From positions 64,001-128,000 of IMG/VR virus record IMGVR_UViG_3300028920_000034: DNA of 64,000 nt. One strand, written 5' to 3'. Below are positions 3,706 to 48,646 of the stretch, piece after piece. A model generated the notes under the pieces. That model made no database searches. It was given only the letters and a program-made list of their open reading frames with translations, and was not told the DNA's origin. The stretch is from a virus. The stretch's first letter is position 1. Every line of letters begins with the position of its first letter. Position numbers and translations under genes: made by a program.

Positions 3706-3779
3706 TTGGCACGCTCATTGCTTCTGCTTAATTAACCTTATCTCCCCTCTTAGAAGAGAAGAGTCTTGAGTGTCTCCGG
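3706..3779 (+). repeat. 74-bp dispersed element, copy 1 (sigma54-type -24/-12 box, TTAATTAA, purine/pyrimidine tract)
   Basis: TTGGCACGCTCATTGCTTCTGCTTAATTAACCTTATCTCCCCTCTTAGAAGAGAAGAGTCTTGAGTGTCTCCGG; intergenic; four other copies. Confidence 0.9.
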
Positions 3780-3780
3780 T

Positions 3781-4722
3781 TCACTTCCCCTTGTTGGTGG
3801 TGCTGTTCACGTCTGGCGTGTACGCCGGCCATGCCCCGGCGGGGGGACCCGTGGGAGCTCCTGGCGATGAGGTTGGGTGCGTGTGGGTGGCGAAGATGGT
3901 CACTGCCTTGCCCCACAGCTCCAGGAGCTTGTTGCCGAGCACAAATGGCTCGGTGCCCCCGTCCCCGAGGGTGCTCCCCCCGGTAACCCCGAACGCCTCC
4001 GCTGCCACGGTCACGGACTTGCCGGCGAGCTGGATCAAGTCTTTCTTCGCCTCCACGTACACCCCGTCCTTTTGGACCAGCTTGATCCCGTCCTTGTCGG
4101 TACTCACGATGTTGCCGTTGGAGTCCCGGATGGTCACCCCCTCCTTGCCGTCTGCCGCGTTCAACAAGATGCTGGTGCCCGTGTGGTCCTGCACCTGCAC
4201 CGAGCCGTCCTTGTCCACGCTGATGAAGCTGTAGCGGTCCTCACCGTCTGGGCTGTTGTCCTTGGACTGGTGCCACTTGATCGTGACGGACTCCTTGCCT
4301 GGGTCATCCGAGAATTCAATGGCGTGCCCGTTGGGAGTAGTCCAGGCGCGCGTCGTGGGCGGGTTCTTCTGACAGGAGCTCGGGGTGTCCAGCACGCCGT
4401 CCGGCTTGCCCCACCAGCCACCCACGTACATCGGAAACCTGGAGTCGCCGTTCTCGAAGGCGATCATCACGGGGTCGCCTTCGGCTGGCACATGGAAGAT
4501 ACCCGCCTGGGCCCCGGCCCCGAGGGCCACCGGCCACGCCCAGTCCGCCAGGAGCTCGTCCCCGGCCACCGCCGGGCAGCTCACGATGATGCGGCCCTTC
4601 ATGTCCGGGTCCTCATTGTCCTCGCACACGCCACGGTACAGGCCGTACCAGCGGTCATAGTGCTCGAGGCCGTACATGCGAAGGTTCTGAATGAACCCCA
4701 GGAATGCGTCGATGGCGTCCAT
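3781..4722 (-). CDS. Baseplate spike, gp5/gpV/VgrG OB-fold family
   Basis: WYGLYRGVCEDNEDPDMKGRIIVSCP...WAWP...GIFHVPAEGDPVMIAFENGDSRFPMYVGGWW, then beta-repeats and a C-terminal HTH metal-tip motif (FATHTHP). Confidence 0.9.
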   Translation of the reverse strand: MDAIDAFLGFIQNLRMYGLEHYDRWYGLYRGVCEDNEDPDMKGRIIVSCPAVAGDELLADWAWPVALGAGAQAGIFHVPAEGDPVMIAFENGDSRFPMYVGGWWGKPDGVLDTPSSCQKNPPTTRAWTTPNGHAIEFSDDPGKESVTIKWHQSKDNSPDGEDRYSFISVDKDGSVQVQDHTGTSILLNAADGKEGVTIRDSNGNIVSTDKDGIKLVQKDGVYVEAKKDLIQLAGKSVTVAAEAFGVTGGSTLGDGGTEPFVLGNKLLELWGKAVTIFATHTHPTSSPGAPTGPPAGAWPAYTPDVNSTTNKGK

Positions 4723-6191
4723 CAGTCCCTAAGCCACCCACCGGGGCCGTACAGCTCCCGGGTCCAGTTGAAATTCGCGTCAGTGCTTACCGCCGCTCGC
4801 TTCTGTAGAGCTTTCTTCGCCGCCTTTTCCACGTAGGGAGAGCTCGCGCGCTGGCTCATCCAGTTGGCGATGCTGGCGCTTGGGAAGCCCCTGGGCATCA
4901 GGTCCACGTCCTGCTTCGCCACGCTCTCACCGAGGGACCAGTTGATCTCGGACACCCGGTACATCCCGGTGAAGTAGTCTCCCACCCCTTCGGCGCGCAC
5001 CAGGTCGTCTGGTAGCAGAGACGGCACCCCGATGCTCGAAACCTTGGCCTTGGCCCCGTGCGCCTCCGCGTTGTAGTCAAACAGGTTCTTGAGTTTGCTC
5101 CCGATGAACTGCTCACGCCCGGGGATGGGCACGTTCTGGCTTCCCTTGGCATCATGCGGAAGGTTCTGGCCGCTCTGGCTGCGCTGGGCCGGCTGGTCCG
5201 ATGGCGCTGCCGGAGCTTTCTTTCCGCTGTAGGATTTGGCCTGGCTGGTGGCCATATCCGTCTTCTCAGTTGGGTGCAGCTTCACCCGCTTGTCATCTGG
5301 GCCAAGGAACCTGGTCACGGCCGCGCGCACGGGCAGGAACATCGCAGTGGACTCTGAATCGAACGAGTCCATCGGAATCACGTTGTTGGCCAGGTCGAGC
5401 TGGCCGCGGAACCGGAACGTCCAGTCCGCTTGCTTCGGCTCGCGCACGTCGCTGATCCGGAGCACGTTGCCGCCCACGATCACGGCCCGACAACAGCACC
5501 TCGCCGCCAGGTGCTTCAGGAACTGCCAATCGTTCAGGCCACCCTGGCAGATCTGCTCCTTGTCGGAATCCAGGATGGTACGCGCATCCTGGGAGAACCG
5601 CTTGGAGTCATACTTCGTGTCTCCGTTCCAGTCGATGGTGAACCCGTACCGCTTGGCAACGAGCTCAATCACCTGGCGATAGGTGGCCCTGTTCTTCCGC
5701 TTCTTGCCGCCCTGGCTGTCCGCGAACGTGTGATTCCAGATGAGGGCATCCTGGTTCTGGAGCTGCGTCGTGAGCCACCCGAAACTGGTGCCGCGGAGCG
5801 AGACGGTGAACTCGTCCCCGAAGCTCACGTCCGGCTTGAGCATCATGTAGTATTTGAGCGGTCCAAGATGGCTGGAATGGCGCGTGTAGCCCCAGCGCAC
5901 GGCCATCGTGTTGCCGATAGTGAGCCAGTGAGATCCGAGGAGCTCCAGGGCCTCCTGGTAGGTAGGCGGAGTGAGGTTGATCGTTACCTCCCCGAAGCCG
6001 CTCATCGTCTCCTTTTGCTGCATCGAAGAGAACCACGGAAGGTGGACAGCCGGCTTCACCTGGCCGGGCATCACCGAGAAGCTGGCCCACTTGCCAATGT
6101 CCGCAGCGTAGACGTTGCACTGCATCATCAGCCCCAGGAAGTCATAGGGCTCTGTGGGAGTCACAGCCACGCTACTGGTCCTCCTTGGCAC
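4722..6191 (-). CDS. Baseplate hub (gp27/gpD-like)
   Basis: VRWGY, QGGLNDWQFLKHLAARC, SIGVPSLLPDDLVRAEGVGDYFTGMYRVSEINW motifs; synteny. Confidence 0.82.
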   Translation of the reverse strand: MPRRTSSVAVTPTEPYDFLGLMMQCNVYAADIGKWASFSVMPGQVKPAVHLPWFSSMQQKETMSGFGEVTINLTPPTYQEALELLGSHWLTIGNTMAVRWGYTRHSSHLGPLKYYMMLKPDVSFGDEFTVSLRGTSFGWLTTQLQNQDALIWNHTFADSQGGKKRKNRATYRQVIELVAKRYGFTIDWNGDTKYDSKRFSQDARTILDSDKEQICQGGLNDWQFLKHLAARCCCRAVIVGGNVLRISDVREPKQADWTFRFRGQLDLANNVIPMDSFDSESTAMFLPVRAAVTRFLGPDDKRVKLHPTEKTDMATSQAKSYSGKKAPAAPSDQPAQRSQSGQNLPHDAKGSQNVPIPGREQFIGSKLKNLFDYNAEAHGAKAKVSSIGVPSLLPDDLVRAEGVGDYFTGMYRVSEINWSLGESVAKQDVDLMPRGFPSASIANWMSQRASSPYVEKAAKKALQKRAAVSTDANFNWTRELYGPGGWLRD

Positions 6192-6498
6192 GGATGCTGA
6201 CCATCGTTCGGATCTGGCTCGGAATGCGAATCATGTCCCCGAAACGCAAGTCCATAGGCAGTAGACGGAACCCATTGATCTCCGCGATCACGTCCCACAG
6301 GATGGAGCTGTTCAGGTAATCGTTCGCCAGCCGGTCAATGCGAACATGGTTCTCCACCCGCAGCGTCGTGTCTGAATCCGCCGGGCTGATCTTTCGGATG
6401 ACAGGCAGGTCCCACCACTCCACCTCGCGTGTACCATCGCTACCCGTCATGAGCTGCGCGAAGTTGAGCCGGCTGTAGGGGTCAATTTCAATCGTCAT
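6172..6498 (-). CDS. LysM/gp53-like baseplate protein
   Basis: RIDRLANDYLNSSILWDVIAEING...DLRFGDMIRIP; directly after the tape measure. Confidence 0.82.
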   Translation of the reverse strand: MTIEIDPYSRLNFAQLMTGSDGTREVEWWDLPVIRKISPADSDTTLRVENHVRIDRLANDYLNSSILWDVIAEINGFRLLPMDLRFGDMIRIPSQIRTMVSIRAKEDQ

Positions 6499-6505
6499 GG
6501 GTTAC

Positions 6506-9500
6506 CTATTGCGAGCCGGCGCTCCGGACCTTGCTCGCGTTCGCACGTTGCCTGATCAGCCGAGCTCGCTTGGACTGCGCGCTCAGGTAGTCGCCAATGT
6601 CACCTTGGATGTAGACATTCACCTGGAACGTCCGGATGGCCTGGGTGAGCTGCGCGATGGCCACGCTCACGTCCGCCATGGCCGCTTTCGTGTCCTTGGA
6701 GATAGCGGCGCTCACCTGGCGCTCTGGCGTCCTTGCTCGGAACCCAGCTCGAGCCCCAGCACCAACTCCACCAGTGCCAGTGGCCGGAGCTTTCCCGAGA
6801 CCCTTCGTGCCGATCTTCTTGTAGCTAATCCCGGAGACCGTGGACCCCTCGCCCACCTTCAGGCGCGGATCGAACTTCTTGAGGGCCGCGATGATCTTGG
6901 GGCTCAACTCGACGTTTTTGCCCGTGAGGGCGCCCAGGTCCAGGCCCTTGAAAATCCGCTGCGCTCGAGCTCCCTGGAGACGACGGAAGATCCCACGGAA
7001 TGCTTCGCGTTGCTCCCTGGGTAGATCGTACAGATTTTCGCCCGTCTTGAGCTGCGCGTAGAGCTGCGTGAGCTGGTCCGCCCGGTCGCGCACCATCTTC
7101 CGCTGGAACTTCATCATGCCCTTGCTGAGTGCCTGTTGCATGGACATGCCCTTGTCCATGTACTCCTTGACCAGGGGCATGACGTTTTGCCCGAATATGT
7201 CCATCCGGATAGCCTTGGCGCGAGACCCCATCCGGGTGGCCCACCAATCGTAGAACTTGACCCTGGCTTGGCGCTCAATCTTCGTCTGCTTCTTGATTCT
7301 GTCCTTGAGATCCTTGGTTGAAACGCTCACGCCTTTCAGGCCCATCTTGTCCGCTTGTTGGCGAAGCGCATTGATCTTGCCCAGCACTGCCTGGAGCTCA
7401 CTTGTCTGCTTTGTGAACTTCTTTTGCTTTTCGAGTTGAGCCATCTGGAGCTTGATCTGAATCGCCGCTGCATCGCTCGCTGCCCTGGTGAGCTTCTGAT
7501 ACATCTTGGCGCCAGTCTGGCCCACGGACACCATTTCGCCGCCCACCTTGCCTCGCATCTTCGCGTAGGCCGCAGCGGACTGGTTCGCTCCGCTCGCGCT
7601 CGCGCGTGCCACGTTGGTGTTCCCCTGGGCAGCCGCGGAGCTCACATTCGTCCAGGTGGTGGCCGCGTTGGAGCTGGTGACGTTCATGTGGCCGGCCATC
7701 TGCGTGGTCACCTGGGCCGAGCTCATGCCCAGGAAGTTGAGGGCCGCTCCGCCCACCTGTTTCATGCCGTTCCAGAGCCAGTCAGCCGTCTCCTTGATCT
7801 GCTTCTGATTGGTGACCTGTTTATCCCTGGACACCGTGGTCGCCCTGGTGATGTTCTTGGACGCTTCGATCTGGTCCGCCTGCATCTTGGCGACCATCTT
7901 GTCCACGCTGGACGTGATGCTCGAGATGTTGACGCCAATCGTCTCGGTAGCTCCACCGAAGAACGACTTGAGCCCGTTGCCTACGGCGCTGAATCCGCCG
8001 CGCACCTTGTCGCCCACCGCACTCGCCGCGGATTTGATCCCTCCCCATGCCTTGCTTGCCATAGACTTCAGGCCGCCCCACGCTTTGGAGAAGAACCCGG
8101 TGATGGCCCCAGCCACCTTTTTCGCCGCGTTCTTGACCGCGCCGAACACCGCCAGTGCCACCTCCTTGATCTTGCGGAACGCCCAAGTGATGCCATCGTA
8201 GATCGCCGTGCCGATCTTCTTGTAGAACCCGATCACGGTACTCCACACGGCCTTGATCGCAGACCAGGCCGCAGTGGCCACCACCTTGAGCTTCTCCCAC
8301 ACCCAGCCAACCGCGCTGTAGATAGCATTGCCGATGGCAGAGAACACCTGGCTCGCTACGCCCCAGACGGCTTTGATTCCGTTCCAGGCCGCCGTGGCGA
8401 GCTGCCACAGCTTGCGGAACGGCCAGGAGATCATCGCCCAGATACCCTCCGCCAGCGTCGTCAGGCTGTCGCCCATGTAGCGCCACACCGCGAGCACCGC
8501 GCTCACCACCCCGGACACCACCTTGTAGAGCATCCGCCAAGGGAAGCTGATCACCTGCCAAATGGCGTTGGCCACCCACTTCAATCCTACCCACAGCCCC
8601 TGGAACGCCGTCTGCACCGCGCCAACCGTCCAGCTCGCTGCCTTCCACAGCATCCGGAACGGCCACGTGATGGCGTCCATGATGCCACGGCCGGTAGAAC
8701 CGAGCGAGGCGTACAGGGACTTCCAGCCCTCCACGATCAACGTGTAGAACAGCTTGATGCCATTCCACGTCATCTTGAAGGGGAACAGGAGCGCCTCGAG
8801 GAGGAAGCGCCCCATGCTCTTGAAGAAGCCCACGAAGTCCCCGCCGGCCAGCTTTTTGACCGCATCGATCAACGGCTTGATCACGCCCCACATCACCTTG
8901 AACGGTCCGGCGATGGCGTCCAGGATTCCCTTGCCTCTGACGCTGAGTGAGTCCCGCAGCTTGCCCCACAGGTGGCTCACCAGGTTGACCACGTTTTCCA
9001 CCACGCCACCGAGGTAGCGGAATGGGAACGTGATCGCCTTGAGCATGGCAATGCCGGCGTACTTGAAGAACCCCAGCACATCGCCCTTCCAGAGCGCCTT
9101 GATCGCTTTGATCACGGGCTGAATCAGGTCCCACAGCATCAGGAACGGGTGCAGGATGATCTTGGCAATGAGCTTCGCCGTCTTGCCCATCTGGCCCGTG
9201 AGAGCGTAGAACGCCACCCCCAGAGCTGCGATCACAGCGATGGCAGCCACCACTGGCCAGAATGCGATGCCCCACTGGGCAGCCATTCCGGCCGCCCAGG
9301 CGTACATCTTGGTGAGCATTCCGGCGAGCGTGGAATACATCGTGGAGGCGATCCACATCAGGCCCCGCAGCATGAGCCGCCTGGTGGACCCGAAGAACAT
9401 CATCGTGATGAAGATCCCACCGATCAGCTTGCCCTTTTGGGCCACCCCTTTCTCGAAGCCCATGGACCAATCGGTGAAGAACTTGTAGACCTGACTCCCG

Positions 9501-11515: not shown

Positions 11516-11569
11516 GGGTTGCTCGCCTACCTGGCGGGTCCAGTGGATCTAATCAGTACAATCGTGGCG

Positions 11570-12959: not shown

Positions 12960-12973
12960 GGATCTACTCAAGA

Positions 12974-13003
12974 GTTATACAGGTGTTGTAGATCCCATGT
13001 CAA
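12974..13003 (-). promoter_or_regulatory. Sigma70-type promoter upstream of the RHH gene
   Basis: TTGACA-N18-TATAAC with TG immediately before the -10, in an AT-rich intergenic gap. Confidence 0.6.
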
Positions 13004-13018
13004 TGGGACTGGCGTGAT

Positions 13019-13032
13019 CTGATTCGAATCAG
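13019..13032. promoter_or_regulatory. Palindrome CTGATTCGAATCAG (GATTCGAATC family), candidate operator
   Basis: Perfect 14-bp palindrome just upstream of the -35; core recurs at 34861, 35176, 56840, 58883 and 58930. Confidence 0.5.
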
Positions 13033-13038
13033 GATGTG

Positions 13039-23216: not shown

Positions 23217-23633
23217 CTACACACCTTTCACGATTTTCTCGTACTCCGCATCCTTGTTGGCCGCGTCACCCTGGCGAGCGAAGTAGGTAGCGCGGCCGGT
23301 TCCCTTCCTTGTCAGCTTGCGGGAGCCCTTGCGTACCTGTCCAGCCTTTTGCATGGCCGCCGTGCAGATGGCGAACGCTTTGGACAGGCCCTCCTTTCCC
23401 TTTTCGCCTTTCTGGTACACGTCCACCACGCACCGGCGGATCCCACGTGGGTTCTGGCTCACCAGCTCTCCCTCGCTGTCGCGCTTCTCGCGAATGGGCA
23501 CCAGGCGCTTGCCGCCATCGAACACCCAGGACGGCTCCCCGGTGATCTCAGGCTCCGGGTGCGTCCAGAGCTCCCACTCCCCCTCGTCCTCAAGCTGGTG
23601 GGCCAGGCCCTCGTATAGCTCACGGATGCTCAT
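23217..23633 (-). CDS. Cargo-type hypothetical protein
   Basis: Acidic leader MSIRELYEGL, then basic domain AFAICTAAMQKAG...LTRKG. Confidence 0.72.
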   Translation of the reverse strand: MSIRELYEGLAHQLEDEGEWELWTHPEPEITGEPSWVFDGGKRLVPIREKRDSEGELVSQNPRGIRRCVVDVYQKGEKGKEGLSKAFAICTAAMQKAGQVRKGSRKLTRKGTGRATYFARQGDAANKDAEYEKIVKGV

Positions 23634-24334
23634 CGATCACCTCGTTCCCAGGAGCCAGTGGACACCTGGTGTACCCAGTTGTTCAGTGCGGCGTGGGCCT
23701 GGCGGAGAGAGCCATGGAACTGATCCACCGTGGCTTGCTGTGCCGGGTTGAGGTGCCTCCGCCTCTCCCTGGGAAAATCGTCGCTCATGGCGATCTTGGA
23801 CAGAAAGTCATTCCACACCTTTAGGGCACGGCGTGGGTCTCCTTTCCTGCGTGCCTCGGTGAGCCCCTCGCTCTCCTGGGCAAACATAGCCGCGATGCTG
23901 TTGGGGTCATCCTGGGCGCCAGGCACGCCCTGGGGCTTTCCACCGCCAAGGCGCTGGCCATCCGCCAGGAGACCACGCATCGCTCCCAGGCGCTCGCGCA
24001 CGTCCGCGCGATCCCCGAGGGTAGCAATGGACTCGGTGCGCCCGCGCCGCTTCCCCTTGCGCTTCCCTTTGCCTTGGAACCGCTCCCAGACCTTGGGCCA
24101 CCGCTTCTTGACGGCCTTGAATACCTGGTCCTTGTGCTTCTTGTTGTCGGGCCACGTGGCGTAGGTCAGCGCGGTCATCGCCTGCTTCGCGCTCTGGATC
24201 GGAAACAGCCGCTCGCCGGGGATGGCGAAGTCCTTGTCCGATAGCGCCTCCCGCGTTGACTGGGCCATCTCCCCGAAGTGCTCCGCATCGTTCACCTGGT
24301 CCACTGCGCCCTGCAATCGGTCCTTGATTTCCAT
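23630..24334 (-). CDS. Cargo-type protein with DUF6582-like domain
   Basis: REALSDKDFAIPGERLFPIQSAKQAMTAL resembles a small phage head-associated domain; internal GLTE|A. Confidence 0.72.
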   Translation of the reverse strand: MEIKDRLQGAVDQVNDAEHFGEMAQSTREALSDKDFAIPGERLFPIQSAKQAMTALTYATWPDNKKHKDQVFKAVKKRWPKVWERFQGKGKRKGKRRGRTESIATLGDRADVRERLGAMRGLLADGQRLGGGKPQGVPGAQDDPNSIAAMFAQESEGLTEARRKGDPRRALKVWNDFLSKIAMSDDFPRERRRHLNPAQQATVDQFHGSLRQAHAALNNWVHQVSTGSWERGDR

Positions 24335-24342: not shown

Positions 24343-24416
24343 CCGGAGACCCTCTTGACTCTTACTCTCCAAAGGGAGAGATAAGGTTAATTAAGCAGAA
24401 GCAACACCCGTGCCAA
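24343..24416 (-). repeat. 74-bp element, copy 3 (sense to downstream gene)
   Basis: Reverse complement TTGGCACGGGTGTTGCTTCTGCTTAATTAACCTTATCTCTCCCTTTGGAGAGTAAGAGTCAAGAGGGTCTCCGG; its end runs into the GGAGG RBS of the 24334 start. Confidence 0.9.
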
Positions 24417-28051: not shown

Positions 28052-28125
28052 TTGGCACAAGATGTGCTTCTGCTTAATTAACCTTATCTCCCCTCTTAGA
28101 AGAGAAGAGTCTTGAGTGTCCCTGA
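28052..28125 (+). repeat. 74-bp element, copy 2
   Basis: TTGGCACAAGATGTGCTTCTGCTTAATTAACC...; 56 contiguous bp identical to copy 1. Confidence 0.9.
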
Positions 28126-28128: not shown

Positions 28129-28398
28129 CTACTTGCGTAAACGCATCGCCGCCGGAAGCCCATCGTTCAGAAGATCGTAGAGCTGGTTACGGTACACCCA
28201 CGCCTTTTGGAGCACCTTGGTGGCATGGTTCTGCGCCGCCTTGGGCAGCTCATCCCATTCGGCCCCCTGATAGGCTTTCAGGATCTTCATGATGGGCCTC
28301 ATGGACGATTCGAGCTGCGTCAGCTCCACGATGATGCCACCGGAGCCCTGCTTCGCCTCGTCCAGGAGTTCCACCACGTTGTCGATACGGTCCTGCAT
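28129..28398 (-). CDS. Small cargo-type helical protein
   Basis: MQDRIDNVVELLDE|A leader. Confidence 0.7.
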   Translation of the reverse strand: MQDRIDNVVELLDEAKQGSGGIIVELTQLESSMRPIMKILKAYQGAEWDELPKAAQNHATKVLQKAWVYRNQLYDLLNDGLPAAMRLRK

Positions 28399-31282: not shown

Positions 31283-31343
31283 TTCTGCCTCCTAAATCCG
31301 GTTCACGCGCTCATTGCGCGTTGGTTTTCCTGGAAGAGATCCC

Positions 31344-34040: not shown

Positions 34041-34973
34041 TCAGCTCACAAATTCCGTGGCCACCCGACGCACTAGCCGGGCCGTCACTTCCACCTGGGG
34101 ATACTGCCGCGCCACCTGGTCAAACAGCCAGCCGCGCGCCGCCACAGTGTCCGGATCGTTGTCCTTGGCCGCCTCGCTCATCAGGTGGCAGAGAGCCTTG
34201 AGCTCCACCAGGTAATCGGAAGCGATGGTCTCGAAATGCTCGGCCGGCCGGGCGATGCCCGAAGCCTTGAAGGCACCAGTCGATTGGTACTCGCCCCACG
34301 CCTCGGTGGTCTGCTCCCAGAGCTTCTCCAGGCGCTCGGCCATCACGCCCACGTCCGCCTCCACGGCGGAAGCGTACTCGCTGGCGTCCTCGAGGAGACC
34401 GTCACGGTACAGGGGCTGGTAGCGAGGTTGAGGGGTGTAGGAAAAAGCGGAGCCGGTGGTGCCCCACACCAGGCGCTGAATGCGCTCATGGTCCTCCGCG
34501 TAGAACGCGCGCCATGGGCGCTCCTGATCGAACATCCCGGAGAGGTGCTCGCGGAGCTCGCGGAGCTGGTCCACCGGGGCCAGCATGGGAGCCGCTTCGA
34601 TCAAGGTACGGATCTGATCACGGGCCGATGAGAAGTCCCCAGCCACCAGGGCCTCCACCGCCTCCGATGCAGTGCGCTCCACGAAGCGCCTGCCATCCTG
34701 GCGCCCGCGAATCACCGGGAGCTCCACTGGCTCCACCTTCGTGATGGAAAACCCGTCACCGGCCGGCTGGTAGCTGGCGCGGTAGACGTTGCCGTCCCCG
34801 TTGGCCACCACCACATGCTCATTGAACGTCGCAATCACGTTCAGGTCCTGCCCGGTCTCGGATTCGAATCTTGCGTGGCTGTCCTCTACCGCCTGGATCA
34901 CTCGACCCACATAATCCTCGATGGATCCGCGGGTCACTTCTGCGAGCACATTGGCCGGAATCAGTCCGCTCAT
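34041..34973 (-). CDS. Hypothetical head-module protein
   Basis: 310 aa between portal and core genes; GGAG RBS. Confidence 0.75.
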   Translation of the reverse strand: MSGLIPANVLAEVTRGSIEDYVGRVIQAVEDSHARFESETGQDLNVIATFNEHVVVANGDGNVYRASYQPAGDGFSITKVEPVELPVIRGRQDGRRFVERTASEAVEALVAGDFSSARDQIRTLIEAAPMLAPVDQLRELREHLSGMFDQERPWRAFYAEDHERIQRLVWGTTGSAFSYTPQPRYQPLYRDGLLEDASEYASAVEADVGVMAERLEKLWEQTTEAWGEYQSTGAFKASGIARPAEHFETIASDYLVELKALCHLMSEAAKDNDPDTVAARGWLFDQVARQYPQVEVTARLVRRVATEFVS

Positions 34974-35094: not shown

Positions 35095-35164
35095 ATTATC
35101 AATACACGGTTCTACACGGGTCAAGGGAAAAAAACAAGGAGGGTCAAACACTTATATAAGTGTT
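35095..35164 (-). promoter_or_regulatory. Sigma70-like promoter plus 18-bp palindrome
   Basis: TTGACC-N18-GATAAT (35124-35095); perfect palindrome AACACTTATATAAGTGTT at 35147-35164 in an AT-rich gap. Confidence 0.5.
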
Positions 35165-35183
35165 GTGTAGGTTCGGATTCGAA

Positions 35184-36896
35184 TCAGCGAGGCATCGGGG
35201 ACGTGCGGAGCGCCCCGCGGACTTCGCTCATGAACGCCTGAAGCTGTCCCATCTGCATCCCCAGGCGCCGGTTCTCGGTGAGCACCTGATCCAGTTGGCC
35301 CCCAAGCCGTCGCTCGGCCTCACGGCTTCCTGCAAACAGATCTCGCTCCACACCGTACAGCTCTCGGGGGCGCGGGGGCGCGGAACGGTTGTCCGTGAGC
35401 ATTCTGTTCGGGCTCCTGGCGGGGAGTCCCCTTGATTCGAATTGCCCTTGCTGGATCTTCATTTCCTCGGTGAGCTCCTCGCGGCGCTGCACCATCACTT
35501 TTTCGATCTCAGCGTCGGAAAAGTTGAACACGTTGGCGAGGAGCCAGTGCTTCGAAACGAGCTCACCCATCTGGGCAGCGAACGTGGCTCGGGTGTTCTG
35601 GATCTCGAGGCGCGCGAGCTCGAAGATGGAGCTCGGCACCGTCATGGCCAGATCGAAGTCCACATAGGCCGGATCGATCCCCTGGCTGGCGAGGTGTACC
35701 TTGGCCACCTTCCGCATCCCCGCCTTGTACTCGCGCTGGACCCGGAGCACCGTCCGGGCGAACCGCACGTCCTCCTGGGAGAGCGTGGCACGGCTCGGGA
35801 GGTTCTCATCGTAGCCCAGGTACGCCTTCGGAATCATCAGGCTGGCGTGGAGCTTGTCACGGAAATAGGCCACGTCTTCCACACCCGTCCAGGTGGGCGT
35901 GTTGAGCACGTCCGCGCGGACCACCTCACGGCTGTCGCGCACCGGGAGGAAGAAATCCTCATCAGTGGACAGGGGGTTGAATCGCAAGTCGAGCTGGCCG
36001 GTCCGTGGGTTCACGAACTTCTTTTTCTTGAGCTTCCGGCGCATCTCGTCCAGGTACTTCTCTGCGTTCTCGGTGGACAGCTTGCCCACGTCCACGTAGA
36101 ACGCGAAGCGACTGGGAGCTCGGGCCAGCCGGCTGATCAGCGCCGCGTCCTCGAGGAGGATGAGACGCTTCCAAACCCACCTGCACGCCTCGAGGATCCC
36201 GATCCCGTACATCGCCCGGCGCCGGTTGCTCCGGAGCCGCATGTGGACCACGCGCCAGGGCTCGAAGAGGGCCACACCGCTGCGCGGCTCGCTCCCCACG
36301 CCCTGGTGGAACTGCATCCCCTCGAGCTGGTTGGGGTTCACCGTGAAGTTGCCCCTGAAGCTCTGCACGAAGCCCTTGAGCTCGCCCTGTTTCCCCTCGA
36401 GGCGTCGGCACGTGGGAGCTGGCAAGAAGTTGAGCCCCTGGACCCCGCGGGAGTTGACCAGGATCTCCTCGAAGTCGTTTCCGTACTTCACCAGCATCCG
36501 GATCGATTCCCACGCTTCATCGTCCACGTGGAGCCGTTTGTGGAGCATGGTGTCGAGCATCCCGCGGATCTGCTCGTCCCGACACACGGACCACATCACA
36601 TGGTTGGTGCTCGGATCTGGAACCGTCGCATCGTCCGCGTAGATGTTCAATGCCGCGTTGCAGTCCGCATACTCATCCATGCGCTCGTAGTCGATCATCC
36701 GCGCCATCAGAGCGTTGGACACCATCAGGGCGTCCTGGACCACGTTCTGCCCGATGTGCTGGACTTGCAGGTTCCCGAATGGATCCATCGGGAAGTCCCC
36801 GACGTTTACCCCTCCGGCTGCCTCAAGCCGCTCCTCGGTGTCGCGGCTGAAAATCCCCCGAACGTAGTTGACGATCCGATTACCCAGGTTCGCCAT
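35184..36896 (-). CDS. Portal protein, T4 gp20-like
   Basis: YERMD...ALNIYADDAT, LVKYGNDF, VVHMRL, YGIGILE, LILLEDAALISRLARAPSRFAFYVDVG, EDFFLP, IPKAYL, LSQEDVRFARTV. Confidence 0.95.
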   Translation of the reverse strand: MANLGNRIVNYVRGIFSRDTEERLEAAGGVNVGDFPMDPFGNLQVQHIGQNVVQDALMVSNALMARMIDYERMDEYADCNAALNIYADDATVPDPSTNHVMWSVCRDEQIRGMLDTMLHKRLHVDDEAWESIRMLVKYGNDFEEILVNSRGVQGLNFLPAPTCRRLEGKQGELKGFVQSFRGNFTVNPNQLEGMQFHQGVGSEPRSGVALFEPWRVVHMRLRSNRRRAMYGIGILEACRWVWKRLILLEDAALISRLARAPSRFAFYVDVGKLSTENAEKYLDEMRRKLKKKKFVNPRTGQLDLRFNPLSTDEDFFLPVRDSREVVRADVLNTPTWTGVEDVAYFRDKLHASLMIPKAYLGYDENLPSRATLSQEDVRFARTVLRVQREYKAGMRKVAKVHLASQGIDPAYVDFDLAMTVPSSIFELARLEIQNTRATFAAQMGELVSKHWLLANVFNFSDAEIEKVMVQRREELTEEMKIQQGQFESRGLPARSPNRMLTDNRSAPPRPRELYGVERDLFAGSREAERRLGGQLDQVLTENRRLGMQMGQLQAFMSEVRGALRTSPMPR

Positions 36897-39265: not shown

Positions 39266-39529
39266 CTACCGGGCGCTCGCATTCCAGTGCTCACCGAGCT
39301 GCTGTAGCCGGAGCTCCAGGAGCTCGCTCTGGCGGAGTCGCTGGCACGCCACCCACACGTGCGCCCAGAACCCCACCGACAACACCATCCCGCACGCGCA
39401 CACGGCCGCAGCGATGTTGTCCATGATGGTGCGGTCCATGATCCCGAACAGCACCGTCCCCAACAGGAACAGCGCGCCGAACACCAGGAACACCCACCCG
39501 ATCATCTTCGGTTTCCGATCTTGTTTCAT
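39266..39529 (-). CDS. Two-TM membrane protein (holin-like topology)
   Basis: Two hydrophobic helices; downstream of element copy 4. Confidence 0.55.
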   Translation of the reverse strand: MKQDRKPKMIGWVFLVFGALFLLGTVLFGIMDRTIMDNIAAAVCACGMVLSVGFWAHVWVACQRLRQSELLELRLQQLGEHWNASAR

Positions 39530-39563: not shown

Positions 39564-39637
39564 ATCAAACCCTCAAGACTCTTCTCCTCTAACAGAGAGA
39601 GATAAGGTTAAGTAAGAAGAAGCAACAGCCGTGCCAA
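39564..39637 (-). repeat. 74-bp element, copy 4 (most diverged)
   Basis: Reverse complement TTGGCACGGCTGTTGCTTCTTCTTACTTAACCTTATCTCTCTCTGTTAGAGGAGAAGAGTCTTGAGGGT. Confidence 0.88.
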
Positions 39638-42245: not shown

Positions 42246-42249
42246 CCTG

Positions 42250-43149: not shown

Positions 43150-43151
43150 CC

Positions 43152-43811
43152 CTACCACCCCGGCGCCGGGCGCGCCTCGCGCGGCTTGAGCTTCACCTGG
43201 CCGTGAAGGAGCTGCATCCCGTATTCGGTCCAGAACTCCTTGGGGTTGTAGAACGAATCGATCTCCTGCCCCTGCTTCGCCAGGAGCACGAAGGGGAGGC
43301 GCTGGCTCTGGACTGCCTCGCTTCTGCGCCCGAGGCTCCACCCGTTGGGCAGGAGCACCGTGGTCTGCGGGTACATCTTGAGGGTGGCCAGCGTCTTGCG
43401 GAACACCTCCTGGGCGTCCAGCCCCTCGAGCTCATCCCAGCGCCCCGCCGTGGGGCCCTGGTAGAAGTAGCTGTAGGACTTCCCAGCGCGGCGGATCTTG
43501 ACCACCGATCTCTGATCGGCAAGGCGAGGGCGCGCCTCCATCAGCCCGGACTCCTCGCGGAGCTGCCCGAGGAGCTCACCGAGAGCGTCCCCCTCGAGCA
43601 TTTCGATGTTGCCCATCTTGCGGGGGCTGCCCTTCGGCTCTCCGCTCTCCAGGTCCAGCTCGAGGTAGTAGAGGTTGCCACCCTTGCCGGGCTTCTTGAG
43701 GCTCACCACGTAGGACTTGGCATCCGCTCCCGCGGTCACCACCTCCCACTCCTGGCCGTCCACTTCGATGGTCTCGTAGGGAACGGGGAGCATGTACTGG
43801 GTTGGGGCCAT
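43152..43811 (-). CDS. Two-module cargo-type protein
   Basis: Internal linker ALGELLGQLREESGLME|A. Confidence 0.75.
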   Translation of the reverse strand: MAPTQYMLPVPYETIEVDGQEWEVVTAGADAKSYVVSLKKPGKGGNLYYLELDLESGEPKGSPRKMGNIEMLEGDALGELLGQLREESGLMEARPRLADQRSVVKIRRAGKSYSYFYQGPTAGRWDELEGLDAQEVFRKTLATLKMYPQTTVLLPNGWSLGRRSEAVQSQRLPFVLLAKQGQEIDSFYNPKEFWTEYGMQLLHGQVKLKPREARPAPGW

Positions 43812-43820
43812 GGGGTCCTC

Positions 43821-44444
43821 CTACCGCTTCTCGCGGGTGGCGCTGAGTACCTTGAACGCCTTGTCCTTGCGGAGGCGTTTCAGCTCCAGGCCGGTGACGC
43901 TGGTGATCTCGTAGACGGTGCCGTGCTTCGGGTCCTCGCGGGAGCCCACGTTGCCGTACTCCTCCGCGCGATACCAGGGGTCCGTCTCCCTGGTCATCTT
44001 GCCGGTGGGCGGATTCACCGCCTTCACCTCCACACGCCACCGCACGTAGTCCTCCTCTTTCTCCTGGGGCTGCTTCTTGCCGGCGAGGAGGGCCTTGAGC
44101 TTGCGAGCGCGCTCGGGGTGGTACTTCTGATAGCCGGACTTGAGCCAGGTCTCGGTGCCCTGGCGGATCAGGTCATCCGCGATAGGGCGCTGAATGCGCT
44201 GCTCCTTGCCCATCGAATAGAGCTGTTTGTAGGTCACCGCATCGTCCGTCACCCGGGTCACGAAGATGCCACTGGGCGAGCTCGAGGCGCCCATGAAATA
44301 CACCTGGTTCGGGAAGATGGTCATCCCGCCGAGCTTGCGGAGACCGCCGGACCCGATGGCGTACATGGTCTCGTCCAGGGGCTCGTCCGAGCCGCCGCGG
44401 ATCTGCTCGAGTAGCCGGGCCAGCTTCTGGGTTCTGATGCTCAT
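43821..44444 (-). CDS. Cargo-type hypothetical protein
   Basis: MSIRTQKLARLLEQIRGGSDEPLDE|T leader. Confidence 0.75.
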   Translation of the reverse strand: MSIRTQKLARLLEQIRGGSDEPLDETMYAIGSGGLRKLGGMTIFPNQVYFMGASSSPSGIFVTRVTDDAVTYKQLYSMGKEQRIQRPIADDLIRQGTETWLKSGYQKYHPERARKLKALLAGKKQPQEKEEDYVRWRVEVKAVNPPTGKMTRETDPWYRAEEYGNVGSREDPKHGTVYEITSVTGLELKRLRKDKAFKVLSATREKR

Positions 44445-44456
44445 CGTGTTCTCCTG

Positions 44457-45368
44457 CTACTTGACCGCCAGGTCACCCTTGGCGATGTGAATGGTGGCCA
44501 CCTTGGTGAGCCCCATGAACTTCAGTGCGCGCTTGGCCCCGGAGGCGTCCGGGGCCGTCATCACCAGGTGGAAGTCCGCCTGGCGGGGCTCCTGCATCCC
44601 GGGGAGCTGCACCTGCTTCAGGCGCACCGCCTGGCCGATGGCCTCGAGGGCCGGCCGCCGCATCTCTGCCCCCTCGTCCAACAGGAGCACCCCCTGGTTG
44701 GCCATGGTGAGCTCGCCTTCCACGTAGCGGCCGTTCCGCACCGTCCCGATCAGGCCCTTCATGCTCACCGTGTAGTGCGGGGCGCGAAGGGGCCCCTTCA
44801 CCATCTCCGCGATGCGCCTGGCGATCATGATCCTCCCGGACCCTGGCTGGCCGGTCAGGATGATCGGAATGTCCTGCATGATGGCCTTCAAGATCTGGTC
44901 CACCACCTTTTTCCGGACCGTCAGGTCCCGGAACTGGGTCATCCCGGGCCGGCTCGCGCGGGCCTCGGTGAGCGGCTCCGGTTCGCTGGCTCGCGGCGCG
45001 CGGATGGTCTCCAGGAGGGTGCCCAGCTTGGCCGCCCTGGTCTCCTCCACCGGGCCCAGCTCGCTCAGGTACAGATACCCTGTACCGTCACCGGACTCGA
45101 CCACGCACGCGGCTCCGCCGTCCGGGAGCTCGAAGCATGTCCGGCCGCTTTTGCTCACGGACTCCTCGAGCCCGAGCAATCCAAGGGCATGGGCAAAGCC
45201 TTTGCAGTCCTTGCTCTCGGTGAACGCGATCCACGCCGCTCCCGCCGGGGGGTCCGGCACTCCCAACGCATGGTCCCCATGCTTCGTGTAGGCCACGCTG
45301 TAGCCGCTGCGTTGCATCCGCCGGCTGATGGCCAGCATGGTCTTTCTGTACGGATGGCTGCGTCTCAT
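44457..45368 (-). CDS. Cargo-type protein with truncated ComM/YifB (Mg-chelatase-like) AAA+ domain
   Basis: KLGTLLETIR...PLTE|A linker, then IILTGQPGSGRIMIARRI, LRAPHYTVS..GLIG, GELTMANQGVLLLDEGAEM, ADFHLV. Confidence 0.8.
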   Translation of the reverse strand: MRRSHPYRKTMLAISRRMQRSGYSVAYTKHGDHALGVPDPPAGAAWIAFTESKDCKGFAHALGLLGLEESVSKSGRTCFELPDGGAACVVESGDGTGYLYLSELGPVEETRAAKLGTLLETIRAPRASEPEPLTEARASRPGMTQFRDLTVRKKVVDQILKAIMQDIPIILTGQPGSGRIMIARRIAEMVKGPLRAPHYTVSMKGLIGTVRNGRYVEGELTMANQGVLLLDEGAEMRRPALEAIGQAVRLKQVQLPGMQEPRQADFHLVMTAPDASGAKRALKFMGLTKVATIHIAKGDLAVK

Positions 45369-45378
45369 GTGTCTTCCT

Positions 45379-46074
45379 TTACGCCGGCTTGTACTTGATC
45401 TCCACGGTGTCTCCCAGAATGCCTCGGAAGCCACTCCGGCTCGGGTCTCCGCGCCAATACTCGCGCCCCTTCAGGTAGCCCCATGTCGGATAGGGCTTCC
45501 TTCCTCGCGTGTTGTAGAGCTCGAAATGCTGATCTGCCTTTGATTTCGCCGGAAGGGGAACCTGTGCCCCCTTGAGCACACGTTCTTTTCGGACCACCTT
45601 GCGCTTGCGCTTGTCATACACCTCGTAATACTCGCGCACCGTCACCTTTGCGAGGGCCCACTTGCCAGGATCGGCTGGAACTGGCGACGGCTTGGCCGCT
45701 GGTTTACGTTTCACTCGGGGCGGGGGCGCCCACGCGGGGAGATCTCCGCCAGGCCCATCGAAACCCATGGCCCACTTGGGCACCTCGTCCTCGCCCAGTG
45801 CCTCTTCGCGGAGCTCACCGAGGAGCTCGCCCAGGGAGTCATGGTCCTCCTTGATCCCCTTGAGCACCCATGCCATGGCGTCTTCCTTGGTTTTGAAGCC
45901 GCTGGCCTTCACGTCACGGTTGCGGTAGTTGCGGACCAGCACGTCGCCGCGGGCCGCGCCCCACCCGGCTGCCATCGTTTTCCAGACGGAACCGAGAACC
46001 TTGTTCCCGCGCATGACTTCGTAGCTGTTGCCCTCATCGTTGTACTTTGGTGGAACCAATCTCGCCTTGGCCAT
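45379..46074 (-). CDS. Two-module cargo-type protein
   Basis: Internal DSLGELLGELREEALGE linker. Confidence 0.75.
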   Translation of the reverse strand: MAKARLVPPKYNDEGNSYEVMRGNKVLGSVWKTMAAGWGAARGDVLVRNYRNRDVKASGFKTKEDAMAWVLKGIKEDHDSLGELLGELREEALGEDEVPKWAMGFDGPGGDLPAWAPPPRVKRKPAAKPSPVPADPGKWALAKVTVREYYEVYDKRKRKVVRKERVLKGAQVPLPAKSKADQHFELYNTRGRKPYPTWGYLKGREYWRGDPSRSGFRGILGDTVEIKYKPA

Positions 46075-46083
46075 GATGCTCTC

Positions 46084-47448
46084 CTACTTCGTGAGTCCGC
46101 TGATGGTGAGCCATTTCGCCTCGCCGTCCTTGCCGGCGTAGAAGCCCACCAGAGTCACTCGGCCGCTCCCGGTGGACTTGTACTCCTCGTTCACGGCGAG
46201 GCGCCACCCGAGGTACTTCGATCCGGATGGTGCGTACTTCTGCACCATGGCCTTGGCATGGCGTCCAATCTGCACCGGGTCGATAAGCGGAAGCCCTTGC
46301 ATGTTGCTCGGAATCTTCGCCTCACCCAGGAACTCGCCTTCCAGCTCAGTGGCCTCGTACTGCATGGCCCGCTTCACCTGGAGAGGCTTCACCCACGCCG
46401 GGTGGCCGTCCAGGTCCCCGTAGGGGTTGAAACAGACCAGGTAGTGGCCTCTGTCCATGCTCCCCCGGATCAGCTTGAGGAGCGCCGCGGAGCCACCGGG
46501 GGCGATCAGCCGAACCAGGTCGCGCGGAAGGGGCCCCTGGGCGTCACCCTTGGTGGGGTACACGCGCACCACCTTGAACTGTTGGCCGTCCGCCTCGAAG
46601 GGCTGCCCGGGGCGCGGAAGGGGCGCCCGCTCCTCGAGGTACTCTCCTCCCAGCTCAAAGTCCTCCCTCACATTGGACTTGGGCTTCTTTCCGTCCTTGA
46701 GGGCCTGAACGATCTGGCGCGCAATCACCCTGGCACTGTTCCAGTGCGGATCCTTCACACCGTACAGCTTGGCCAGGTACTGCATTTCAGGCACCGTCAG
46801 GTTGGCCGCCTCCATCTTGCGCTGGAGGATGACAGCGAACGCATCGAAGCCGTACTGGTCACCCGGATACTCGCCGTCCAGGTGCCCCTTGCCCATCCGC
46901 TTGTGATAGGCGTAGAACTCCTTGGCCATCTTGTGCAGGTCCGCACCCGTGGCCTCCTCGAGACTGTCCTCGCTGCGAAGCTCACCGAGAAGTCTCTTGA
47001 GCTTCCCAGCCATCGCATCGCCCTCCAGTTGGCTGGGCGCGATCTCGCTCAGGAACACGTACCCGGTAAACGTGGCCATCGGCTTGAACGCTCCACGGAA
47101 CGGATCCAACACCACGTAGGCGTAGACACCCTTGCCAGGGCCGATGAACTCTTCGCGCTCCACGCCGTTGATGTTCCCGCTTCCCTCGTGTCGCCACCCA
47201 CCGCCGCGCTGCATGGCCGTGGAAAGCAAGGAGCGGAACTCATCGTACTGAGCTGGACCACCGGGAATCGGATAGCCCATGCCGTCCTTTTCCCGGTTGG
47301 TGTACTCGAAGGTGAGCCACTTGGTACCCTCTGGCGGATTCGGAATGCGGAACTGGCGCACTCCGCCGGACCGCCCTTTCACCTTGAAGCCATGCTTCTT
47401 GAGCGAAGATCCGATGGCGGAGATCAGCTTTGGGTAATGCTTGCTCAT
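46084..47448 (-). CDS. Four-module cargo-type polyprotein
   Basis: KLKRLLGELRSEDSLEE|A, EYLEE|R and EFLGE|A linkers. Confidence 0.78.
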   Translation of the reverse strand: MSKHYPKLISAIGSSLKKHGFKVKGRSGGVRQFRIPNPPEGTKWLTFEYTNREKDGMGYPIPGGPAQYDEFRSLLSTAMQRGGGWRHEGSGNINGVEREEFIGPGKGVYAYVVLDPFRGAFKPMATFTGYVFLSEIAPSQLEGDAMAGKLKRLLGELRSEDSLEEATGADLHKMAKEFYAYHKRMGKGHLDGEYPGDQYGFDAFAVILQRKMEAANLTVPEMQYLAKLYGVKDPHWNSARVIARQIVQALKDGKKPKSNVREDFELGGEYLEERAPLPRPGQPFEADGQQFKVVRVYPTKGDAQGPLPRDLVRLIAPGGSAALLKLIRGSMDRGHYLVCFNPYGDLDGHPAWVKPLQVKRAMQYEATELEGEFLGEAKIPSNMQGLPLIDPVQIGRHAKAMVQKYAPSGSKYLGWRLAVNEEYKSTGSGRVTLVGFYAGKDGEAKWLTISGLTK

Positions 47449-47457
47449 GGTGTTCTC

Positions 47458-48024
47458 CTACCGGTACTTGCCACCGCGGATTTGAAAGCTGTCCTTGGGC
47501 GCACGGCCGGTCTTCTTGTCGCCGTACATCTGAAGGGCGCCCGGGGTGTAGCCTTCGATCATCTCGCTGTCCGCAATGGTGACAAACGTGCCGATCTGCC
47601 CGGCAATATCCCCAGGGGTGCTGTCATCGGACATGGCTTGCTCGCCCGTCTTGTAGATGCTCCCGCCCTTCATGGTCTTCCCGGTGGCCCGATACTTGAG
47701 CACCGGCTCACGGTCCCACCACTGGAGCTCCACGGCCATGGTGTAGCTGCCACCGTATCGCCCGCTCGCGCGCACGCGGAGGATCTTCCCCTTCACCCCC
47801 CACTTGTACTTCGCCAGGGAGAGCTTCGCCGCGTTGGACAGCGGGCCTTTAAGCCGGCGCGCCGCTTCCTCGAGCACACCCACCATCATGGCGTCCCGGC
47901 GAGCTGCCAGAGAGCCAGCCGTGGCCTCGTCCAGGACGGCTTCGGTCTCGTCCACTAGATCCATCTCCACGTCGTGCCCCTCGCGGAGCATCCCCAGAAG
48001 ATTGAGTAGCTTGCTGGTGTCCAT
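47458..48024 (-). CDS. Cargo-type hypothetical protein
   Basis: MDTSKLLNLLGMLRE...VLDE|A...VLEE|A. Confidence 0.75.
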   Translation of the reverse strand: MDTSKLLNLLGMLREGHDVEMDLVDETEAVLDEATAGSLAARRDAMMVGVLEEAARRLKGPLSNAAKLSLAKYKWGVKGKILRVRASGRYGGSYTMAVELQWWDREPVLKYRATGKTMKGGSIYKTGEQAMSDDSTPGDIAGQIGTFVTIADSEMIEGYTPGALQMYGDKKTGRAPKDSFQIRGGKYR

Positions 48025-48032
48025 GGTACGCC

Positions 48033-48482
48033 TCACTTCCAGTCCGGGAGCTCCACCGCCACCGCCTTGAAAAGCTCCTCCGCGGCACCACCGAGATACC
48101 CGTGGCACTCGTTCATGTCCTTGTTGACCTTGAGCATGAGCTCCACCATGTCAGGAATGCTGCGACCGTCACCCCGACCAGCTTGTTTCATTGCCGGCTC
48201 GAGTTGCTTCATCAGCTTCTCGGCCTTGGCCAGGTCCGCACGATGGGACTTCACCATATCGTGGAACGCTTCGATGTTGGCCATGAGCTGTTTGTACTGT
48301 GGGGGCTTGAACGCAGGCTTCCACCTGGACTCATCCAGCTCCTCGTCCTCCCCGAACATCTCGGGCTCGTACTCCTGGAGCCAGGCATCGAAGCCCTCCG
48401 CGGGCTCATTGGTCTCCTCGGGCTCGAGGCCGAGCTGGGAGCGGATGGATTCGATCAGGTCTCTTCCGGTCTCGGTGGGCAT
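48033..48482 (-). CDS. Cargo-type helical protein
   Basis: DLIESIRSQLGLEPEE...ELDE|S; AGGAGG RBS. Confidence 0.75.
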   Translation of the reverse strand: MPTETGRDLIESIRSQLGLEPEETNEPAEGFDAWLQEYEPEMFGEDEELDESRWKPAFKPPQYKQLMANIEAFHDMVKSHRADLAKAEKLMKQLEPAMKQAGRGDGRSIPDMVELMLKVNKDMNECHGYLGGAAEELFKAVAVELPDWK

Positions 48483-48572
48483 TGTCGCCTCCTGGTGTGT
48501 TCTGCCTAGTGTCCTGCATATCCTACATGGCGGACACCTGACAAGTCACGCGGATTTTTGGCCCCCCGATTT

Positions 48573-48646
48573 TTGGCACGCCTGTTGCTTCTTCTTAATT
48601 AACCTTATCTCTCCCTTTGGAGAGTAAGAGTCAAGAGGGTCTCCGG
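48573..48646 (+). repeat. 74-bp element, copy 5
   Basis: Differs from the reverse complement of copy 3 at only 3 positions. Confidence 0.9.

Follow-up and report, generated by a model that had tools for sequence, protein, structure and literature searches.

The question raised by this locus is why a lytic phage should carry intact sigma-54-type promoter sequences that point against its own genes. The source genome is that of an uncultured tailed phage of 153,114 bp, and the window, i.e., the whole stretch of DNA analysed, is a 64,000-nt part of it. A sequence-only reading had placed five copies of an intergenic element in the window, and alignment agreed with it on the coordinates and strand of each. 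The element is a cassette of about 75 bp. By pattern search and profile search of the 153,114-bp genome, 12 copies were counted, i.e., four in sense and eight in antisense orientation to the genes, and five of them lie in the window. The profile search added a diverged copy at genome position 50582.

The -24/-12 consensus of sigma-54 promoters had been recognized in these copies from the letters, and counting upheld it. The window has five exact matches to the pattern TGGCAC-N5-KTGCT, compared with 0.06 expected from shuffles, none of which reached five. When one mismatch was tolerated, seven matches were found in the window against 2.8 expected. The pattern search of the genome returned 11 exact or near matches, compared with 0 for the reversed control. 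A search for further copies had been proposed, with attention to the GG and GC doublets, and these stand exactly ten bases apart in the extended consensus TGGCAC-N5-TTGC in all 12 genome copies. Across the phage and its sister genome, the consensus was kept in 23 of 24 copies; the remaining one, a sister copy, reads TGGCAT.

On its own strand, the cassette is composed of the -24/-12 boxes, an 8-bp AT-only stretch, a pyrimidine/purine hairpin and a Shine-Dalgarno (SD)-like block, in this order. The AT-only 8-mer was found solely in the cassettes and nowhere else in the genome. Every copy (12/12) is intergenic and fills the stop-to-start gap, with stops and starts a few nt from the cassette ends. 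Gene calling by codon-position GC assigned essentially all genes to the minus strand, as the earlier reading had it, and, in the plus-strand ORFs next to the copies, GC1 was lower than GC2, which marks them as antisense shadows. Because the genes lie essentially all on the minus strand, copies 1, 3, and 5 run against the genes, again as claimed, and copies 2 and 4 are sense. In the sense copies, the ATG is located 6-7 nt past the SD-like block in two and past a second SD in one. A short ORF after the SD-like block of the antisense copies was also searched for, and nothing conserved was found. In the module map, sense copies precede the head and tail blocks and antisense copies follow these. 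Phage recombination and replication genes adjoin some copies, and an iteron-type origin candidate was found elsewhere in the genome, separate from the cassettes.

Copy 2 (24343..24416, minus strand) heads a block with tail sheath, tape measure, and spike. Read along the minus strand, its -24/-12 boxes (24400-24416) are followed by the predicted AT-only start region (about 24387-24395), the hairpin (about 24361-24385), and the SD-like block (about 24349-24354). Directly after this block, a second SD is followed by an ATG at 24334, and the first gene downstream (23630..24334, minus strand) encodes 234 aa without a family match. Copy 4 (39564..39637, minus strand) is located upstream of a small membrane-protein gene, then portal, protease, and capsid. 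The first gene downstream of this copy (39266..39529, minus strand, ATG at 39529) encodes a hydrophobic 87-aa product with a weak holin-like match.

The antisense copies of the window are on the plus strand. Copy 1 (3706..3779) lies between the stop of the baseplate spike gene and the start of the next minus-strand gene. The spike gene (3781..4722, minus strand), a Phage_base_V match with a gpV/VgrG-type OB domain, closes the tail block, with its stop abutting copy 1. On the mRNA strand, copy 1 has a 9-bp hairpin stem, then an A/U-rich stretch. Copy 3 (28052..28125) lies where the head block ends distally and is separated by 3 nt from the stop codon of an 89-aa gene (28129..28398, minus strand). 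This gene is absent from the sister genome, where the hairpin half of copy 3 and the adjoining gene were replaced. Copy 5 (48573..48646) is found 4 nt past the stop of a 42-aa membrane-protein gene, a hydrophobic ORF read from the sequence (48651..48779, minus strand), whose stop abuts the 3' end of the copy. About 90 nt follow copy 5 on the sense strand; in them are a weak sigma-70-like promoter and the SD of the gene at 48033-48482. A CTCTCC/GGAGAG hairpin had been attributed to copies 3 and 5; it is actually in copies 2 and 5, and copies 1 and 3 share another variant.

The sister genome is approximately 93% identical, and 12 of 12 copies were found at the same sites in the same orientations. 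Between orthologous copies, 2.4% of sites differed in the -24 box, 1.0% in the -12 box, and 0.5% in the start region and leader. The spacer and the hairpin core reached 16.7% and 17.7%, respectively, and the flanks about 8-18%. Restricted to the antisense copies, the comparison with the sister gave 2 differences in 120 box sites and 10 in 40 sites of the 5-nt spacer (p = 1.6e-5). Therefore, the backward copies are under selection as predicted sigma-54 sites. Pairwise differences per site among antisense paralogues were 0.017 in the boxes and 0.565 in the spacer. The fixed boxes and variable N5 spacer described before were thus borne out, antisense copies included, and the conservation of about 55 bp beyond the boxes was likewise seen in antisense copies against the sister.

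The cassette is confined to two genomes, i.e., this phage and its sister, and a metagenome contig match was the sister's virus. Relatives with 51-72% capsid identity did not have it around their capsid gene, and it was absent from a 159-kb relative and from bacterial genomes (185,579 species genomes searched). In the sister contig, a 144-bp terminal repeat has the look of an overlap from circular assembly, and a line of reasoning from the distance to the genome end was rejected for that reason. As a clue to the host, tRNAs were searched for in the phage and none were found; a gene-based host search gave DUF5131 homologs of at most 53% identity, spread over many phyla.

The mRNA-strand stem ranged from -6.6 to -16.5 kcal/mol in all 24 copies of both genomes. 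In the antisense copies, the hairpin averaged -11.3 kcal/mol on the mRNA strand versus -8.1 kcal/mol on the other, and about half of them were 3.6-6.8 kcal/mol better on the mRNA strand. The commonest antisense-only variant showed -10.9 kcal/mol on the mRNA strand versus -5.3 kcal/mol. For this strand asymmetry, the one-sided Mann-Whitney p was 0.095, with few independent hairpin variants. Hairpin arms paired with their own partner at -9.18 kcal/mol versus -8.22 kcal/mol with the arms of other copies, and 11 of 5000 permutations were as good. Stability was not in excess of same-composition shuffles (z-scores +1.0 to -1.3). A conserved RNA structure was rejected, as RNAalifold gave -3 kcal/mol without covariation or compensatory pairs and there was no Rfam match; with Rfam 15 at the gathering score, no match was obtained across the whole window.

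Of the eight tail bases that follow the mRNA-strand hairpin, only four are U, whereas clear terminators of the phage itself have U6-U8 runs. In a consensus terminator scan, the cassettes were not flagged as intrinsic terminators. Since only 1-10 nt separate most antisense copies from the start of the next gene, transcription must largely read through. A defined terminator for antisense transcripts was rejected, since the consensus scan returned no more terminators than expected by chance; a loose scan was swamped by noise owing to the T-rich plus strand and could not be used. A sigma-54 small RNA with a defined end was not supported, as no terminator follows the cassette on its own strand; on the antisense RNAs suggested before, the sequence speaks neither for nor against. 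A sigma-70 or T4-type late promoter on the reverse strand was considered and rejected. The hexamers were poor, with no usable sigma-70 pair when the cassette sequences were read by eye, TATAAATA was absent, and the AT-only 8-mer was cassette-only.

A search for a phage-encoded bEBP or an RpoN-like gene had been proposed, and neither was found in the genome. The sole Sigma54_activat match (window 44457-45434) is a short ComM/Mg-chelatase-like AAA+ protein, in which R replaces the Walker A lysine and no GAFTGA loop is present, so it was rejected as an enhancer-binding protein. The sister genome has its gene too, whereas the 159-kb relative lacks both this gene and the cassette; this is a single co-occurrence and proves nothing. 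No sigma-70-family factor was found in the genome. A T7-type or single-subunit polymerase was not found either, a weak negative, as the positive control gave no match. Upstream of the copies (240 bp, -260 to -20), k-mer counts for a shared enhancer-like motif were not above those of random windows. A downstream activator box inside the cassette is possible, and so is a host activator acting from solution.

We propose that the element is a host-sigma-54 promoter cassette, which in sense orientation drives gene blocks and in antisense orientation marks transcription-unit borders with a gene-end stem-loop and a backward promoter. We hold this reading to be evenly poised between right and wrong. 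The reader of the cassette would be the host sigma-54 (RpoN) RNA polymerase, a host rpoN being assumed. The DNA would be opened and transcription started at the 8-bp AT-only stretch, and the leader would fold into the hairpin. The four sense copies may be switchable promoters, and behind those in the window lie the head block with portal, protease, and capsid and the tail block with sheath, tape measure, and spike. The eight backward copies are inserted exactly between a stop codon and the next start. On the mRNA strand, their hairpin and A/U-rich tail could work as a leaky attenuator or a 3'-end stabiliser, and on the other strand the intact predicted promoter would fire into the block just read. 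By these backward promoters and gene-end stem-loops, a sense block would lie between convergent sigma-54 promoters, and less read-through would reach the next block. For activation, either a host enhancer-binding ATPase would have to act with no upstream site carried by the phage, or an unrecognised activator would be needed. Sigma-54 binding, firing, the start site, attenuation, and timing are all putative steps of this scheme. A bolder form of it is tentative and rather doubtful: the cassette might be a reversible, two-faced punctuation, which combines a sigma-54 promoter with a gene-end attenuator on the opposite strand around a common AT-only core. Through its orientation at each junction, the head and tail blocks would be bracketed with convergent sigma-54 promoters and the other blocks lined with backward ones, and a single host signal, i.e., one active enhancer-binding ATPase that reports the state of the cell, would at once turn some blocks up and others down.

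Binding without firing would also make use of the boxes. Sigma-54 holoenzyme may be held in closed complexes on the near-consensus copies, whose number would rise as phage genomes replicate; they would act as a sponge that drains the small sigma-54 pool and shuts down host sigma-54 responses, or as a roadblock, and orientation would be irrelevant. The boxes are indeed conserved in both orientations with a free spacer, the holoenzyme is known to rest on promoters in an inactive form (PMC4591121), and the searches gave neither an activator gene nor an upstream enhancer. However, in antisense copies the 55 bp downstream are as conserved as the boxes; a sponge needs none of them, and a pure roadblock does not account for this conservation either. 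Four copies also stand exactly where a promoter, leader, and SD are expected, and intragenic sigma-54 bound in E. coli had no measurable effect on overlapping genes (PMC4591121), which speaks against a roadblock. We regard this explanation as unlikely. Still less probable is a mobile or recombining cassette like the promoter-early stem-loops (PeSL), in which the sense copies alone are promoters and the backward ones are passenger stem-loops or recombination sites whose boxes are kept by gene conversion. The order of stop, promoter, stem-loop, SD, and start is the PeSL architecture (PMC2839356), and the hairpin is optimised on the mRNA strand. Conversion-like swaps of spacer and hairpin were seen between orthologous copies, and 2 of 37 alignment breaks between phage and sister fell at cassette edges against about 0.8 edges expected. 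Gene conversion between copies could thus be contributing to box conservation. However, in antisense-only variants divergence has reached over half of the sites in the spacer and a third of those in the hairpin, but less than 2% of those in the boxes. Conversion tracts replacing two boxes but skipping the intervening 5 nt are implausible, and all eight backward copies were kept in both genomes.

It is very improbable that a reader other than host sigma-54, such as a phage DNA-binding protein or a modified polymerase, uses the boxes, with convergent or incidental likeness to the consensus, or that the transcripts prime replication via R-loops at the purine-rich leader. That no activator was found speaks for another reader; the purine-rich leader tract and the neighbouring recombination and replication genes would suit priming. 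However, about 13 specified positions fit the consensus at exact spacing, and the variable positions are those unread by sigma-54. No phage sigma factor or single-subunit polymerase was found to replace it, the control having failed for the latter, and the separate origin candidate argues against priming.

Sigma-54 promoters are silent until a host ATPase sensing a particular stress or nutrient state activates them. If the proposed host-sigma-54 promoter cassette is real, a lytic phage would, through the promoters ahead of its head and tail blocks and the eight backward copies between other blocks, make its gene expression in either direction depend on host physiology. Should the backward copies indeed fire or attenuate, the cassette would be a small regulatory part whose effect is set by its orientation. 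To our knowledge, only isolated sigma-54 promoters have been reported in phages, as in YuA, and the repeated promoter/stem-loop cassettes known so far, i.e., PeSL, are all of sigma-70 type and one-way. In the phage literature searched, no layout with intact sigma-54 cassettes against the genes was described.

The backward cassettes resemble the oop promoter of phage lambda, which sits after a gene and is aimed back into its 3' end. The oop RNA is a phage cis-antisense RNA, one short sigma-70 transcript with its own terminator, whereas the backward cassettes number eight, carry a sigma-54-type promoter, and are not followed by a terminator. In E. coli and Salmonella, intragenic and antisense sigma-54 sites are conserved, and antisense regulation is among their proposed roles (PMC4591121; PMC3844500). 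Those sites likewise face away from or against neighbouring genes, but they are single, diverse, and mostly weak, whereas the phage-borne cassette is repeated, near-consensus, and exactly intergenic with a fixed downstream module (PMC4591121; PMC3844500). For host sigma-54 use by phages, the precedent is Pseudomonas phage YuA, with one sigma-54-like promoter confirmed, according to the account of Ceyssens et al. 2008 in PMC10914365, where the promoters were mapped again. YuA is similarly a virulent phage without its own RNA polymerase, and in that account it uses host sigma-54 beside sigma-70 promoters (PMC10914365). Unlike the one promoter described there, the present phage has 12 near-identical cassettes with a conserved leader, two thirds of them against the genes (PMC10914365). 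The PeSL of the T4-type phages RB49 and phi1 are about 50 co-oriented sigma-70 early promoters clustered in hyperplastic regions (PMC2839356). The cassette shares with them a repeated stop-to-start unit of strong promoter, stem-loop, and SD (PMC2839356). PeSL are linked to gene gain and loss between close relatives (PMC2839356), and here such a link would be weak (2/37 breaks). Unlike PeSL, it has a sigma-54 promoter, 8 of 12 copies are inverted, and it punctuates the core head, tail, baseplate, and replication blocks (PMC2839356).

The five window elements that the sequence-only reading took for sigma-54-type sites were borne out by alignment over ~75 nt, and the window contained five exact matches to the box pattern, where 0.06 were expected. 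In this alignment, an invariant -24 box is followed by a variable spacer, an invariant -12 box and an AT-only 8-mer. Downstream of the 8-mer, a variable hairpin core separates a conserved pyrimidine leader from two conserved purine blocks, of which the second is Shine-Dalgarno (SD)-like. The CTCTCC/GGAGAG hairpin had been placed in copies 3 and 5. The alignment confirmed it for copy 5 but not for copy 3; it is carried by copies 2 and 5, whereas a different variant is common to copies 1 and 3.

The window covers bases 64001-128000 of a 153,114-bp IMG/VR virus with 64% G+C. The virus is a myovirus carrying T4-type genes for capsid, portal, prohead protease and sheath, and shows at most 33% identity to any isolated phage. 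By codon-position G+C, essentially all genes are carried by the minus strand. Pattern search and profile search found 12 cassettes in the whole genome. Four are sense, i.e., pointing with the genes (genome positions 1751, 88416, 103637, and 140118), and eight are antisense or backward (15783, 24022, 42735, 50582, 59395, 67706, 92052, and 112573). All lie in the gap that separates a stop codon from the following start. For antisense copies, the stop of the upstream gene lies -4 to +7 nt from the cassette 3' end. Two of the four sense copies have an ATG 6-7 nt past the SD-like block, and the remaining two have a second SD and then an ATG.

The cassettes were located at the borders of gene blocks. 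Sense copy 4 (window 39564-39637, -) is placed ahead of a small membrane protein, followed by portal, protease and capsid genes, and antisense copy 3 (window 28052, +) is at the end of the block with portal, protease and capsid. Likewise, sense copy 2 (window 24343-24416, -) precedes the sheath/tape measure/spike block, which ends at antisense copy 1 (window 3706, +). Other antisense copies divide baseplate, fibre-like and virion genes; one is between a UvsX-like recombinase and a resolvase, and another is ahead of a ParB-like gene.

Besides this genome, one cassette-bearing genome was found, a 153,540-bp sister with ~93% identity; a contig from a metagenome is the same virus as this sister. 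All 12 cassettes are kept in the sister (12/12), with identical junctions and orientations. Between orthologous copies, differences per site were 2.4% in the -24 box, 1.0% in the -12 box, 0.5% in the start region and leader, 1.2% in the first purine block and 2.8% in the second, SD-like block. The spacer (16.7%), hairpin core (17.7%) and tail (24%) differed far more, and the flanks differed by 8-18%. In the antisense copies alone, boxes differed at 2/120 sites versus 10/40 in the spacer (p = 1.6e-5), and among antisense paralogues the pairwise difference per site was 0.017 for boxes versus 0.565 for the spacer. In the sister sequence L013, the backward cassette orthologous to genome copy 15783 is separated from the upstream gene by an extra gene of ~100 aa (1010-1430), which is bounded on both sides by a perfect inverted repeat of 20 bp.

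The conserved pyrimidine leader can pair with a purine block in every copy. Pairing with the own arm was stronger than with swapped arms (-9.18 vs -8.22 kcal/mol), and 11 of 5000 permutations were as good. Since the folds were no better than same-composition shuffles and RNAalifold detected no compensatory pairs, the hairpin structure is considered plausible, not proven. Folding of the strand opposite the promoter gave a strong stem in 24/24 copies (-6.6 to -16.5 kcal/mol), and folding of the promoter strand gave a weak one in about half of the antisense copies. The antisense-only variant seen most often folds at -5.3 kcal/mol forward versus -10.9 kcal/mol in reverse because its wobble pairs are confined to the reverse strand, which is the mRNA strand for antisense copies. 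Sense copies have a strong stem on both strands. The antisense/sense contrast reached a one-sided p of 0.095, with few independent variants behind it. This pattern suggests selection on the mRNA form of the hairpin in every copy; it would be a 5' leader stem where the copy is sense and a gene-end stem-loop where the copy is antisense. In antisense copies, the A/U-rich stretch after the mRNA-strand hairpin is the AT-only core itself. With only four U in this tail, and with most downstream genes beginning within 10 nt, the antisense stem-loop would act as a leaky attenuator or a 3'-end stabiliser at most.

Elsewhere, the phage genome has sigma-70-type promoters of the ordinary kind as well as canonical U-run terminators, so the cassette is an additional layer and not the only signal. 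Good sigma-70-type promoters, with -35 and -10 hexamers spaced by 17-18 nt, were found upstream of the portal gene (window 35095-35124, -) and inside the tail block (window 12972-13038, -). The head block is thereby predicted to have a sigma-54 plus a sigma-70 promoter. Between the protease and capsid genes, a hairpin (window 31305-31328, +) has a U run after the stem on the plus strand only. It is terminator-like for antisense transcription, not for mRNA, and could be the end of a transcript from antisense copy 3, although as a single case it may be due to chance.

Other repeats were also found. Six copies of the 10-bp palindrome GATTCGAATC were counted in the window (13021-13030, 34861-34870, 35176-35185, 56840-56849, 58883-58892, and 58930-58939), where 0.02 were expected. 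Several copies are directly 3' of stop codons, in a context like a tRNA T-arm plus acceptor end; ARAGORN predicted no tRNA. Outside the window, 23-bp repeats of either orientation are clustered together with hairpins and an AT-rich tract (genome 36672-36975; L042:16672-16975) and form a candidate replication origin.

A phage-encoded RpoN or activator had been proposed as a target of search. The phage genome yielded no RpoN, no sigma-70-family factor and no single-subunit polymerase, and the only AAA+ match was a ComM-like protein that lacks the GAFTGA loop. This short ComM/Mg-chelatase-like protein (window 44457-45434, -) has arginine replacing the Walker A lysine, is encoded among putative capsid cargo genes, and is 95% conserved in the sister but missing from a 159-kb relative. 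No motif common to the regions upstream of the cassettes was found. The cassette was not found in 185,579 species genomes, in the other viral contigs searched, or in relatives with 51-72% capsid identity, one of which, the 159-kb genome, has no sigma-54 sites at all. This absence points to a recent acquisition by the lineage of the phage. In two unrelated low-GC viral contigs (L048:11764-11879 and L047:7232-7260), consensus sigma-54 boxes also precede this AT-only 8-mer; they form a tandem pair in one contig and lie immediately 5' of an ATG in the other. By profile search, these are unrelated to the cassette.

The best-supported reading of the sequence is a putative host-sigma-54 promoter cassette that the phage employs both ways round. 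The sense copies would act as switchable promoters that bring their own leader and SD. The backward copies would provide a gene-end stem-loop and a promoter firing back into the block just read, by which head and tail blocks would be bracketed by convergent sigma-54 promoters. Productive firing and mere binding are both compatible with the predicted promoters. A pure sponge or roadblock, which the sequence-only reading had offered, is disfavoured, because it leaves the conserved downstream half unaccounted for and because overlapping genes are unaffected by bound sigma-54 in E. coli (PMC4591121).

The backward copies might instead be passengers, or serve recombination only. Gene conversion does occur, since the spacer and hairpin of another copy are sometimes present in the orthologous copy. 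However, two boxes staying identical while the intervening 5 nt diverge goes beyond gene conversion. This box conservation argues against a passenger or recombination-only role, which is disfavoured, and from the substitution pattern we conclude that the backward copies are probably under selection as sigma-54 sites.

Phage use of host sigma-54 has a precedent in the Pseudomonas phage YuA (PMC10914365), and enterobacterial chromosomes are known to contain antisense sigma-54 sites (PMC4591121). The promoter-early stem-loops (PeSLs) of T4-type phages are repeated promoter/stem-loop/SD cassettes with sigma-70 promoters co-oriented with genes (PMC2839356). The present cassette is likewise a repeated unit of this kind, but its promoter is of the sigma-54 type and two thirds of the copies are inverted. 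The literature searched gave no description of a multi-copy, mostly inverted sigma-54 cassette with an mRNA-strand hairpin. A 12-copy sigma-54 cassette, two thirds inverted and with a hairpin that favours the mRNA strand, is a new combination.
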